In this document: piece after piece, positions 18,001 through 57,200 of the stretch | How the letters are laid out: every line of letters begins with the position of its first letter | Position numbering within the stretch: position 1 is the stretch's first letter | From: Rhina ancylostomus | Taxonomy: Eukaryota | Reading direction: 5' to 3' | DNA length: 64,000 nt | NCBI GenBank assembly: GCA_030265395.1 | Contig: JARFYF010000063.1 | Span: 46,071,664-46,135,663, forward strand | Program-made: the position numbers

Positions 18001-21000
18001 ATGATACTATTTTCCAAAATATTCCCACAAAAAGGCTGCTTGTTCTTCTAGCACAAGTTTTATATTAAGAAAGCAGTTTATAATATCATTCACCATCGCC
18101 AGCATACTTAACACTTTGGCACTGGGGTGCCATGATTAACAATGCAGAGCATGTGTCATCAACCAGTCAAACTCATGAAAACTGCCACTCACCAAGAGGA
18201 AAAAAACAATTTCCCCCAATACAAGTCTCACTCAATAAATAATGTCTCAATATTTCAAAAAACCTTCATGGTAAATCTTAGTTGTTAACTAAGAAAGTTT
18301 TTTATCCACCACCAATCAAACCCATTTTAAAAACATTTCCCACCTACATAAAATGATTTGCATTCAGCCTTGAACACATTTCTAATAGCGTGTTCTTAAA
18401 TTATGCAGAACAATCTCCAATGTGCAATTCTGAAAGCTTCAGCAGCAGAGCTCAGATTCAAAGCAGATTGATCCTGGACTCTCACTGCATTAAAGTCCTC
18501 CAGGCACCTGCTGAAAATCATTACATGTACCAGTAGGCAGACAGGACAGTGACCAAAAGGAAAATAATCTTGTTTATCCTGACCACATTTCAAGCTTTTT
18601 ACAAAGAATTCCAAACTCAAGATCTCAAATATCCTTACAACAAACGTGTTTACTTTAACAAAGGTCTACCAGGAGCCATGATAACAGACTTAAAGCCACA
18701 TTTTTTTTTAAAAAAGAAACAATGATTTACACTTGCTTCATGTTTTAAAGCAGAGTCATCAAGGCTTGCAGCAAATACATCCAAACTGATACACTTGCAA
18801 GTCAACCCAAGAATATAAAGGCCAGAAATAATCAATCCATTATTTTCATTCTTTCTACCAGAATCTGCAATTCACATGGATTTATGTTGATGAAATTTCT
18901 CCTCCTGAAAAGTTTAGGATCTGTGAACAAGCATCAACACACTCTACTCCATAAAGGAGCACACAATGTGACAACCATGATAGTTTAAAAAAAAATTATC
19001 AAAAGAACTTTAACTCACATAATCATGAAAGGCTTTTGCTTCACTTGAATGTTCACATGTGTCTCGCCTTTCAGGAGCTGCACAGTAAAGGTCCCAAAAT
19101 ACACTGATAGAAAAAAAGAAAAAGATTGTTAACAATTTCACATTCTAAAATGCTGCACTCAAGTAAATAATTCATTTCTTAATGATAAAAATAAGGAACA
19201 TACAAGCATTGAATCCCCAAGATCCATTACAATTTCAGGTCAATGAATTCATAGAATTAAAAAGCAGCAAATTCATAATCAGCTGAATTTATACTTTTTT
19301 TTAAAAAGTAGTATTTAAATTTTTAATTTATTTTATTTACAGTGTGGTAACAGGCCCTTCCGGCCCAACGAGTTGAAGAGTAAAAAGTGCTGTGTTACTT
19401 ATGCTGAGTAACATTAGTGCTCATGGTACTTGACTGCAAATACCAACTGTAAGGGAGGAGTTATAATTCCAACCCAAGTTCTTAGTCTACTTCAAGGCTT
19501 CTATCAGTTCCATTCATGTTGTGTGCTGCACATTCACAAATACCCTGGTTCCGCCTTGGGCCTGTACCTGCAGGTACTCTACTGAAACATTTATCTAACT
19601 GAACCTGTGAATTTGCAAACCACTTTGTCATCATTTCATATAATTAGTGTTCCACCAACATCTCTACAACTTATTTTATTTATAGCTTGGTAACAGGCCC
19701 TTCTGGCCCAATGAGTCCATGCCGCCCATTTTAAACCCCAAATTAACCGACCCGTATGTCTTTAGAATGCGGGAGGAAACCAGAGCACCTGGAGGAAACC
19801 CACGCAGACACAGGAGAACGTACAAACTCTTTACAGACAGCCACGGGAATCGAACCCCGATTGCTGGTGCTGTAAAAGCGCTGCGCTAACTGCTACGCTA
19901 CCGTGCTGCCCCCATTCTGCTATATTCACATCACAGCCCTCAAAATGAAATCCTGCCTTATTTTAAATAGACCTACTTGCACCATCCCAAAGTCAATCAT
20001 CATGCTTTAACTTGTCTATCCCATCCCACATCACAATCTCAAATCCACTCTCAAAAGCAACAGTTCTTTTCAAGGTACGTTGCCGCACCCACCAGCAGCC
20101 TGTCAAAAGATCCAAACTGTAGCTTCCAACTTTTCCACCAGAATTCTCAAGTCTTTACCCAATTTGCAAACAGACTCTCAGATAAACAACGATCCATTTG
20201 CCCCTTTCAGTTTAATCCATGAAATCTCCCATCTGACTGCAACTTGAATAACAATCTTTTGCCTCATAGTTGGGAAACCATTCCAATTATCAATTACAGT
20301 TCTTGAAATGCTATTTGATGTTTAGCCAGAATGTGGTTTTTGTCACTTCATAGTCATGTCTCAGTCCTACAGCTGGAGTGCAACCATAACCTTTTCTATT
20401 CCAGTTGATATTTTCTTGACAATAATATTGCCGATCATTCACCATTACTGATTGCACCTTTAAGATTCCAAAGCATCTCAAAGCACTTCATAGAAGCAAA
20501 ATTTAACACTGTGGTATACAAGGAAATGTTACAACAGATGACCAAATAATTGCATTAAAGACAAACATACAAACACACCCTTTGAACTCAAGTCAACAGG
20601 CAACAATCAGTACCTCAAGTTGGTTCTTAACCTCCCTAGCCTGAGGGTTACTAAGGACACTTGTAGTACCGCACCACCCAAACAGAGATTAGCAGAGTCA
20701 CAGATTGAACCTGGAATTTTTATGATCAGTACGAATCAAACAATAGCTCTTCACAACTATGTTAAACACTGCTCTTTTGGACAACTTACTCCCAAGCCTA
20801 TACTTTTAAATGACACAGCTTACTACCTTCACTCAACGCCTCACCATAACAACGTAGGCAATATCACAAACACAGCAGGGGAAGTTGTTTGAGAATGAAC
20901 ATGCATCCCCTTGCACTGCTGTCACATTTGCATTAGTAGGTGGGCTGGTAATAGACTTTGAATAGTAACCAAAAACATAGCCCTTTTCACCAAAGCCTTT

Positions 21001-54200: not shown

Positions 54201-57200
54201 CAGTTTATGAATGCATTTTTCAAAATACTGCTACAAGACCAGAATGAGTAGTAGCTGGCACAGAGCCAAGAGAGCATCTGATATTTGGAGTCTTCAGAAC
54301 AGAGATGGAAAGGAAGCCAAAGGGAGGTGGTGCTGAAGTCATCAGGAATACATGCAAAAGTGTATCAAAAGGTGGCAAACTTAAAATCATTAAAATGGAA
54401 GATAGGTTGCATAGGCAAATTACATTCAATTATTTCTCATGTTATGCGGGTTTTTACGAAATTGTTTCTTGTCATTTGAAGAAATAATAAGAAAGGAAGT
54501 TGCACATCACTTTCAAGTAATTGGTTTGTTTTCTGTGTTTGGTTGATTTGTGATTTAGATTCCTTCCTGTGTGCATTTTGGAAAGAAAAAAAAAATCAGT
54601 ATCATTTGTTGTAGAAGAAAAAAATCCAGGATGATCGTTCTTGCGAGAGACTCACTTAATCTGCCACCCCAGACGTTTGACAGATATGTTATAACAAAGA
54701 TATTTTTGCATTGCTTATGATGTATGGAAGTACAGATGTAATATCACCCTTATTTTAAATCTGATAAGGCATCTCTGGCAATGGCAACAAACCTAATTTG
54801 AGAAGATGGTGAAGACATGCCTTTTTAGAGAAGTACATTGCTGTAGGTGGAGCCACACATAGGCCAGATCAGATTATGAACATCAGATGCCCTTCCCTAA
54901 AAATACACAAATGCTCCACCCAGGCTTTAACTTAAATTACCGTGAGCTCACCATTACTTTAAAAATTCATTTACAGATTGACGTTGCTAACAAAACTAGC
55001 ACTTATTACTGTAGAGAAGTTTGAAGTGAGTTGCTTTTTAGAATGACTACAGTATTTTAATGTTGGGTAGGGAATTCAAGAATTTAGATCCAATAACAAT
55101 GAAGGAACAAGATATTTCATAAGAGGATGATTTGCAATTGTTCATATTCCCATATGCCTGCTATTCTTATCCTTCTTGCTGGTAAAAGTCACAGGTTTGG
55201 GAAGTGCTTTCAGAGAAGCATAGGCATGTAACAAAAATGCACTTGTAGATAATACACACTGTAGTAACGGTGCCAATGTTTGAACATTACAGGTGATAGA
55301 TTGGGTGTCAATCGAGCAGGCCACTGCATCAAGTGTTGAGCTTCCAGCATTGGAGTTTCACACCCAGGTGAGTGGAGAGTATTGTAACACTCTCCTGACT
55401 TGTGCCTTGCAGATAGTTGCATTGCTGGGGCCATTCACCAAAGACAGCTACTCTCTGAGCTGTTCCTGTAGCTGCAGTATTTGTGGTTAGACCAGATGAT
55501 TTACTGGTGACCACCAAGATGTCGATGGTGAGGTATCTAGCAAGATTAACATTTTTGATAGTCAATAATTAGTTGTTAGACTTGCTCATTGGAGATGGTC
55601 ATTGCCTCTCTCATGTGTGGCATGAGTTTACTTGCCACCCAAATGTTGTTTAGGTCTTGCTCCATAGGTATGGTTGCTTCATTTTCAACCGAGTTGCAAA
55701 TGGGGTAGAACATTTAGCAAGCATCCCCACTTCCAATCTTAGATGGAAGCCCAATTACTGATACTAGTATTTTTAAAGAAGATTCCAGATTATTTTAACA
55801 AAATTTAAATCCTCCAGCATCAGGGGGTGATATTTACTTTTAACTATCTATAATCTGAATTACTAATCCAATAATTTAAATGCAATACTACAATTTCCAA
55901 CCGAGATGCCAATTATGTAGAATGGTCATGTGACATCATAATTCAGATTTCAAAAGAACTCAGACTTTTTAAAATGTCTATTTTTGTTTCTCTTGACCAG
56001 GATCCAACCAACCCAGCTTCTCTGCTCTTGCTGACCCAAATGTCCCCTTCAATACTCACATGTACAACATGTCACCTATTCAACCTCAGTCCCCGAATTG
56101 TTTCTTTACCAGTCCCCTGTGCCTAATTAATCAATTATTCAATAGAGTGCTATAGACTTGCTTTTTACACAAACCATTCCAGGGCAAGTCCAAACACACA
56201 CAATGACAACCTTATTGTCAACATAAAAGTTGATACCAGAATTAAGATTGTGGACCATTTGAAACTTTCAGGACCAGTCAATCTTTATTAGGCAAGGGTA
56301 TCAAAGGATTTAAGAAAGGATGGTTAAATGGAACTGAGGTACCAATAAGCCATGATCTGAGCAATGGAGCAAACAAGGGGCTTAATGGCCTTCTCTTATT
56401 CTCATGTTCCAAAAGCACAACAGAAATCTCACAGACCCATTCAAAATCAAAAATAACCATTAGTTGTACCTACCTCACTAAAGTGCAGGTATATATACTC
56501 TCTGGACTTTTGACTCAACTCATTGCAGCCAATTTGCTCAGCAAATGAAGCTATACCAATGGCATTACTTGGATCCAATTGCTCCACCAGGAATTTGCAG
56601 CATGCTTTTACAACGCTATCTATCTGGTACATGACTGCTCCATTCATAACGTGCAGTACACATTTCTCTCCCACTGTAATACTGGCTGTGTATGCAAACT
56701 CAATTAAACGTTGCATTACTTTAGGGTGAACACCCTCAATGGGTATAACCTCCATTCCACATTCTTTCAAGCCATTGGTAAACATGGCCTTAAAAACAGG
56801 GCTACAAGAGGCAAGAACAATCTTGTGTGCAACAAACTCTTCTTCCAGAGTATTGTGCTTCACCCTGAGTGTCACGTCACAGAGTTGCTTATTTAAGCGT
56901 ATTTCATTCATTATTTTAAAGGCCTCCACCGTGTGGCTTTCCAGTGTGTAGCTGAAGTAGCGACTGGCATTTTGTGATGGCATCACTTCTGCTGTGCACT
57001 CTGTTGTCATCGACATTTCTCCAAAGTCACTATCTGCAGTTCATTGCTTCTCAGGAAAAGCAGAAAACGGTCACACAGTGGAAGGTATACATTTCAAATC
57101 CATTCAGGTTGTGTCCATCCTTAGCTTCCTTGGAGAACATCATTTTCTTGGGCATCTTTGGAAGAGAAAAGTAATTAATTTTAAAGAGCACAAGAATCAT

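Follow-up and report, generated by a model that had tools for sequence, protein, structure and literature searches.

A KEAP1-family gene beside an SSBP3-type gene in Rhina ancylostomus: a possible third Keap1 lineage kept in cartilaginous fishes

A KEAP1-family gene and its neighbour in the window

Within a 64,000-nucleotide stretch of the genome of Rhina ancylostomus (GenBank assembly GCA_030265395.1, contig JARFYF010000063.1, positions 46,071,664 to 46,135,663 of the forward strand; hereafter, the window), we examined a complete KEAP1-family gene and the SSBP gene that lies next to it. Both are on the minus strand and read in the same direction, with KEAP1 upstream: 22.8 kb separate the KEAP1 stop codon (46528) from the SSBP start codon (23729), and exons 1-4 of the SSBP gene are in the window (Table 1). 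An earlier note on this DNA, made from its letters alone, had described just such a pair, a complete KEAP1-family gene about 22 kb upstream of a co-directional SSDP gene, and had proposed that the former may be the Keap1A copy of fishes in a slowly evolving state. The pair is as described; the proposed name is refuted. Rather, we favor, with moderate confidence, the reading that the gene represents a third Keap1 lineage of gnathostomes, retained by cartilaginous fishes, linked to SSBP3 and automatically annotated as KEAP1 or Keap1B.

Two vertebrate Keap1 lineages, both held by sharks, are described in the available text of previous studies (PMC7452054, PMC6155405, PMC10198636). No third lineage appeared in the literature that we searched, outside of which lay subscription journals and paper supplements, and the matches to 'keap1c' in it were cysteine mutants. 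A third copy of this oxidative-stress sensor may have been overlooked in cartilaginous fishes.

The KEAP1-family gene extends from 57016 to 46528 in five coding exons, whose 1761 nt make up 586 codons and a stop. Every exon junction carries AG/GT splice sites, and by tblastn the exons are colinear with residues 1-585 of the protein named 'KEAP1' in Chiloscyllium punctatum (P0001). A length of 586 amino acids is also that of the three closest proteins among the matches listed, namely P0001 and the proteins named 'Keap1B' in Callorhinchus milii (P0002) and Heptranchias perlo (P0006). Searched exon by exon, Pfam returned BTB (E=5e-31), BACK (E=1.2e-22) and, in all four Kelch-bearing exons, Kelch_1. 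None of the 14 runs of unread letters (N runs) in the window falls within a coding exon of either gene, so that continuity of the coding frame across gaps is not at issue. Eight of the runs lie in the spacer and one, 46927-46962, sits in the intron that separates the last two coding exons of the KEAP1 gene; no coding sequence is read across a gap.

We compared the window gene exon by exon with named database proteins, leaving unnamed matches aside; statements about the whole protein are sums over exons or rest on database proteins, and 'exon 3' in the trees and identity figures below denotes the 228-residue exon, which is the second coding exon of Table 1. As judged from its domains, nearest relatives, contact residues and sensor cysteines, the gene is a member of the KEAP1 (KLHL19) family. 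The top named rows of the protein search carry KEAP1-type or generic names, with five lower named rows called 'Kelch-like protein diablo' or KLHL19, and trees place the gene within the vertebrate Keap1 clade, whose support ranges from 96/89 to 100/98.

Upon close examination of the functional residues, all 13 NRF2-contact positions that we checked proved to be kept, as were eight of nine checked cysteines (151, 226, 273, 288, 297, 319, 434 and 613). The ninth position, 257, is a proline (CCA, 52353-52355, minus strand); P0001, P0002 and P0006 have a cysteine there and, in the rows shown, bichir Keap1B has a serine and Morone Keap1B an arginine. Cys257 is among the reactive cysteines named, and roles of C151, C273 and C288 are described, in the available text of one study (PMC6155405). 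The Cul3-contact stretch, a seven-residue segment whose bounds are our own placement, reads NGLKECG, just as in the Keap1B of gar, bichir and coelacanth, and most of its positions differ in Keap1A rows. By these residues, the gene has a Cul3 loop of Keap1B type. The parts required of a KEAP1 are all present, and the conserved residues suggest that the window protein most likely serves CUL3 as the adaptor through which NRF2 is delivered to the proteasome, and that it lets NRF2 go on cysteine modification. In this scheme the BTB domain would dimerise and dock on CUL3, the BACK/intervening region supplies the sensor cysteines, and the six-blade Kelch propeller would hold NRF2 until the cysteines are modified.

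Table 1. Coordinates of the exons of both genes and of the spacer between them (window positions)
Feature	Position	Strand	Description
KEAP1 first coding exon	56474..57016	-	181 codons; ATG, GT donor; BTB, start of BACK; 171/181 identical to P0001
KEAP1 second coding exon	51799..52484	-	228 whole codons; BACK/intervening region, Cys273, Cys288, Cys297, first Kelch repeats; 221/228 identical to P0001
KEAP1 third coding exon	50766..50971	-	Kelch; 64/68 identical to P0001
KEAP1 fourth coding exon	48345..48521	-	Kelch; 52/58 identical to P0001
KEAP1 last coding exon	46528..46676	-	Kelch, Cys613 equivalent, stop codon; 45/48 identical to P0001
Spacer between genes	23730..46527		8 N runs, LINE/SINE-like open reading frames, no other conserved gene
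SSBP3-type exon 1	23674..23729	-	Start codon, MFAK; tblastn with elasmobranch SSBP3 P0244, P0246, P0250
SSBP3-type exon 2	23264..23336	-	LisH part of N-terminal domain
SSBP3-type exon 3	22977..23038	-	Codon 23030-23032 TGT (Cys)
SSBP3-type exon 4	19019..19103	-	ERRDTC; remainder of gene beyond window start

Two probable Keap1B-like genes among cartilaginous fishes

Trees of the sequences show the window gene, C. punctatum 'KEAP1' and Callorhinchus 'Keap1B' as one lineage, which is sister to, and outside, the group formed by Heptranchias 'Keap1B' and the Keap1B/KEAP1 proteins of bony vertebrates, with Keap1A further out. In the exon-3 tree (43 rows), the window gene, P0001 and P0002 are united at 100/96, and P0006 joins the 18 bony-vertebrate rows at 99/95. 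The exon-2 tree likewise groups P0006 with bony vertebrates (97/91) and leaves the window gene outside. With 42 full-length database proteins, support is 100/99 both for P0001 with P0002 and for P0006 with bony vertebrates, and the split is the same (100/99 and 99/97) when the seven invertebrates and the lamprey are removed (34 rows). Keap1A follows the species order in the same trees: the chimaera branches off before the squalomorph and galeomorph sharks, and Heptranchias falls where expected.

In identity, each of the five exons shows the same pattern. Summed over exons, the window gene matches P0001 at 553/583 residues (30 differences, among them Pro257, where both P0001 and P0002 have Cys257), Callorhinchus P0002 at 482/583, Heptranchias P0006 at 442/582, gar Keap1B (P0003) at 447/583 and C. 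punctatum Keap1A (P0116) at 323/578. Identity over its five exons is 76-83% with Keap1B-type proteins, against 56% with shark Keap1A. Over the 228 residues of exon 3, identity is 97% to P0001, 83% to P0002 and 75-78% to the Keap1B of gar, bowfin, bichir, coelacanth and Heptranchias. Support for the clade that the window gene shares with P0001 or P0002, or that these two share, ranges from 100/96 to 100/99.

We then asked of the full-length alignment which groupings it tolerates, using the approximately unbiased (AU) test. A clade of P0001 and P0006 is rejected (log-likelihood difference, dlnL, 129.8; p=1.9e-58), and so is a clade of P0001, P0002 and P0006, a group picked after the tree had been seen (dlnL 23.5, p=0.0024). 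Individual sites point the same way. At 35 sites Chiloscyllium and Callorhinchus agree against Heptranchias, which there matches the bony-vertebrate consensus; 31 of these sites carry the Chiloscyllium/Callorhinchus state in the window. The reverse patterns are rare: at three sites Chiloscyllium and Heptranchias agree and Callorhinchus matches the bony-vertebrate consensus, at one site Callorhinchus and Heptranchias agree and Chiloscyllium matches it, and at one more Chiloscyllium and Heptranchias agree with neither of the others matching. All three cartilaginous fishes stand together against the bony-vertebrate consensus at two sites. At positions 103, 246 and 416, P0006 shares S, F and I with 15/16, 16/16 and 14/16 bony-vertebrate rows respectively, and the window type has C, Y and V, as do Keap1A and lamprey and, at 246 and 416, invertebrates.

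Orthologs that followed the species tree would give the reverse of these site counts. Hidden paralogy is the simplest reading: there would be two different Keap1B-like genes among cartilaginous fishes. On the same simplest reading, their split would predate the divergence of chimaeras and sharks and, by the tree, also the split from bony vertebrates. The two kinds remain close in build. Compared with Keap1B and mammalian KEAP1, P0006 included, the window gene has the same BTB-BACK-Kelch architecture, the 586 amino acids of P0006 and 74-77% summed identity, and it keeps Cys151, Cys273, Cys288 and the 13 checked NRF2-contact residues. It differs in lying outside the clade of P0006 and the 18 bony-vertebrate rows, in lacking S103, F246 and I416, and in its visible neighbour, which is SSBP3-type and not a gene of the human KEAP1 region. 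The expectation that a gene of this sort would be automatically annotated simply as KEAP1 is matched by its relatives, which are named 'KEAP1' (P0001) or 'Keap1B' (P0002).

Among the matches listed, P0006 is the sole cartilaginous-fish protein that groups with bony-vertebrate KEAP1; it belongs to a cluster of 2 and comes from a 22.5-Mb contig. The cluster of P0001 has 28 members.

The neighbouring gene resembles SSBP3

For the SSBP gene we used as query P0229, a 100-residue C. plagiosum record named 'SSBP3-like' that covers the same four exons and shows no difference, over its first 92 residues, from full-length SSBP3 of Pristis, Narcine and Scyliorhinus torazame. The 92 SSBP residues encoded in the window match elasmobranch SSBP3 (P0244, P0245, P0246 and P0250) at 91 positions. 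Compared with SSBP3, an LDB1 cofactor, the window thus shares 91/92 N-terminal residues, including Phe2 and the elasmobranch Ser5, and differs in a change from Trp to Cys. This change, at codon 23030-23032, places a cysteine where all 21 compared SSBP proteins, spanning insects to mammals and with P0229 among them, have tryptophan, and is either a base-call error of the draft assembly or a real variant.

MFAK, SDGQ and ERRDTC, which the earlier note had taken as SSBP3-type residues, are all present in the exons. A start with MF is diagnostic, being found in 14/15 rows named SSBP3, 3a, 3b or 3-like, in one of three SSBP4 rows and in none of three invertebrate rows. SDGQ and ERRDTC are not diagnostic, because both also occur in invertebrate SSBP rows. 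Among the compared rows, Ser5 of the window protein is common only to those of elasmobranch SSBP3. The N-terminal domain as a whole is nearly invariant from insects to mammals. As judged from identity and Phe2, the likeness of the neighbour to SSBP3 is strong, and it looks like SSBP3 rather than SSBP4.

No shark SSBP2 or SSBP4 is found among the matches listed (best 120 of 1544) of the SSBP search. The exon-4 query returned mostly short fragments, with seven named rows, and its matches in the PDB are SSBP2 and fly Ssdp only; none of the three short SSBP exons was matched by Pfam. A tblastn search of positions 1..19018 detected no further SSBP exon; the paralog-specific, Pro/Gly-rich part of the protein, encoded from exon 5 on, falls outside the window. 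Latimeria (P0232), Polyodon (P0179) and C. plagiosum (P0229) have short 'SSBP3-like' or partial SSBP3 models that run past exon 4 into the following intron before they stop, which suggests that automatic SSBP3 models often fail at a very long intron 4.

A proposed third Keap1 lineage and its alternatives

The human 1p and 19p regions share many duplicated gene pairs, such as JAK1/TYK2, PDE4B/PDE4A, LRP8/LDLR and ATG4C/ATG4D. In the available text of three gene-family papers, SSBP3 is placed at human 1p32.3 (PMC10399856), keap1 on human chromosome 19 at ~10 Mb (PMC3280201), and PRKACA and PRKACB at 19p13.1 and 1p31.1 (PMC3625193); the same text, which treats paralogy of gene families, does not cover the synteny of KEAP1 or SSBP. 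A position by SSBP3 would fit a KEAP1 ohnolog from the early vertebrate genome duplications. Jawed vertebrates would then have started with three Keap1 lineages, the third of which would have been lost in bony vertebrates and retained in cartilaginous fishes. There it seems to be the sole Keap1B-like gene in most sampled species, carrying the names KEAP1 or Keap1B that pipelines assign. The earlier note's proposal of an ohnolog by SSBP3 that is not the ortholog of mammalian KEAP1 survives, on the present data, as to the position outside the mammalian KEAP1 clade and the SSBP3-type neighbour, and fails as to the Keap1A label.

A fuller history can be drawn, in which jawed vertebrates inherited three Keap1 ohnologs (Keap1A, Keap1B and the third), and the SSBP3-linked third survives only in cartilaginous fishes, where in most species it has replaced true Keap1B and is the shark 'Keap1b' of literature and databases. 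We put this history forward tentatively, with the balance tipped slightly toward doubt. Under it, the weakly Cul3-binding loop of the Keap1B type would predate the split between Keap1B and the third gene, and the KEAP1-SSBP pair may be an old linkage.

Several observations weigh against a third lineage. The case rests on one protein of one species (Heptranchias P0006, from its cluster of 2): among the matches listed (best 120 of 248), the other six of the seven Keap1A-bearing cartilaginous species have no P0006-type protein, and with that type in one order only, several independent losses would be needed. No single genome is shown with all three Keap1 types. P0006 has the same length (586 amino acids) as the window type, whose stem is fairly long (0.14) and could be pulled toward the outgroup, and the three-way AU test was framed post hoc, with a p of 0.0024 that is not overwhelming. 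The SSBP assignment draws on 92 residues of very high conservation, the linkage of KEAP1 and SSBP3 crosses 8 assembly gaps, and the ohnolog claim depends on a single neighbour and on the map positions of human genes.

One alternative is a younger paralog. Had Keap1B been duplicated in early cartilaginous fishes, after the split from bony vertebrates and before that of chimaeras and sharks, a faster-evolving window-type copy might be pulled rootward in the trees. In length and in functional motifs, both types do resemble Keap1B. The window type does have many derived states of its own (for instance at 48, 225, 306, 418, 432 and 584) besides its stem of 0.14, and one site, alignment column 299, could be a change common to cartilaginous fishes. 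Yet the clade of three cartilaginous genes that this history predicts is rejected (p-AU 0.0024), and P0006 was recovered with bony vertebrates in four analyses, one of them without the long-branched outgroups. S103, F246 and I416, moreover, are common to Heptranchias and bony vertebrates, and the window type keeps the outgroup states; an SSBP3 neighbour would also fit a whole-genome duplicate better than a local one. We consider the younger paralog unlikely.

The more conventional view, that the window gene is the plain cartilaginous-fish ortholog of Keap1B and mammalian KEAP1 and that the placement of P0006 is an artefact or the peculiarity of one record, strikes us as quite unlikely. NCBI names P0001 'KEAP1' and P0002 'Keap1B', and a whale-shark Keap1b (rtK1b) stands in the Keap1 tree of Nguyen et al. 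2020, as seen in the available text (PMC7452054). The NGLKECG stretch and the Keap1B pattern of the sensor cysteines agree with this view, as does the fact that the window type joins the Keap1B clade (100/98) before anything else, and the other type is known, among the matches listed, in only one of seven cartilaginous species. Against it stand the rejected union of P0001 and P0006, with its dlnL of 129.8, and the 35 Chiloscyllium/Callorhinchus sites set against three Chiloscyllium/Heptranchias sites. P0006 is sister to all bony vertebrates and not nested among them, as expected of a KEAP1 ortholog; its 22-Mb contig argues against contamination, and Heptranchias Keap1A behaves normally in the same tree. 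The protein of the window, in short, was not found inside Keap1B/mammalian KEAP1.

A different doubt concerns the linkage itself. The KEAP1-SSBP adjacency depends on scaffolding, because the spacer holds 8 gaps, two of which are placeholders of 100 N; the scaffold might therefore join unrelated contigs, and the two genes might not be true neighbours. At both placeholders the flanks overlap, by 60/60 bases at 40639-40738 (40579-40638 against 40739-40798) and by 21/22 bases at 44751-44850 (44729-44750 against 44851-44872), and they look like unmerged contig ends of one locus joined by a placeholder. The 60-base overlap is no proof of continuity, because it falls inside a dispersed repeat with four copies in the window. 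The remaining six gaps are short and sized, with 3 to 51 N. A misjoin between the genes is, in our estimate, very unlikely. Six of the eight spacer runs had been listed by the program that accompanied the earlier note; the others are 34820-34822 and 43393-43398. Those two and the intronic run 46927-46962 are missing from that list.

That the window gene is Keap1A in a slowly evolving, near-ancestral state, a view to which five of eight residue motifs lend some color, has a likelihood that we put close to nil, since Keap1A forms a separate clade at 100/100 without the window type, their union, a hypothesis fixed in advance by the earlier note, is rejected (dlnL 33.2, p-AU 0.0004), and C. punctatum, Callorhinchus and five other cartilaginous species own, among the matches listed, a separate Keap1A that is 56-58% identical to the window gene over exon 3. 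Diagnostic residues agree with the rejection of Keap1A membership. Loss of Cys273 and the absence of Cys257 mark Keap1A in the available text of one study (PMC6155405), and a different Cul3-interacting stretch in that of another (PMC10198636). The window gene keeps Cys273, where all eight Keap1A rows shown have I or L; it has Pro at 257, but Cys stands there in P0001 and P0002, its nearest relatives. It carries neither of the Keap1A-type stretches (111-117 and 270-276). With the Keap1A of fishes and amphibians it shares its domains and some old residues (SEVY, the H and N of HALLNAV, and C103); it is set apart by 56% identity, a separate clade, Cys273 and the Cul3 stretch.

The eight motifs that had suggested Keap1A (KEC, ITVGE, ACC, SEVY, HALLNAV, MNTVRSG, VYQ and FLSSVEC) are all present in the window gene, as the earlier note had said. 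Three of them, KEC, ACC and MNTVRSG, are ordinary Keap1B: Heptranchias and 10-14 of the 18 bony-vertebrate Keap1B rows have them. ITVGE, SEVY, HALLNAV, VYQ and FLSSVEC are indeed rare in Keap1B. Both window-type rows have them and the single Heptranchias row has none; among the 18 bony-vertebrate Keap1B rows each occurs in 0-2, among the 13 Keap1A rows in 3-8. Lamprey and five of seven invertebrates have SEVY too and, because outgroups carry it, SEVY is an old state that was changed in Keap1B. The other four are not in lamprey and occur in at most one of seven invertebrates. Judging by these rows, none of the eight motifs marks Keap1A.

If the window gene does belong to a third Keap1 lineage, studies that take shark 'Keap1b' for the ortholog of human KEAP1 are comparing paralogs. 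Changes that have been tied to life on land, in the Cul3-contact loop and in gains and losses of cysteines, would shift in their timing. Cartilaginous fishes would be a natural example of a stress sensor in which one paralog has replaced another. The case would also illustrate how automatic naming hides ancient paralogs.

Repeats and other features

The window, elasmobranch DNA near to but distinct from that of C. punctatum, has a G+C content of ~0.38. Apart from the two genes, we detected in it no second Keap1 fragment and no other conserved gene, and the 7 kb upstream of the KEAP1 gene hold repeat-like open reading frames only. Rfam gave no matches and Tandem Repeats Finder no rows for the window. 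Fragments of long interspersed nuclear element (LINE) reverse transcriptase appear as open reading frames around 17317-17868 and 58143-58478. The dispersed element resembles a short interspersed nuclear element (SINE), with its four plus-strand copies at 7445, 19791, 40607 and 40767, one of them in intron 3 of the SSBP3-type gene. Dispersed repeats and reverse-transcriptase fragments alike look shark-like. Among the KEAP1-like database proteins, one metaclust entry of 509 amino acids (P0058) carries a 7-transmembrane receptor domain (PF00001) besides BTB and Kelch, and is possibly a fused model of KEAP1 and a neighbouring receptor gene.

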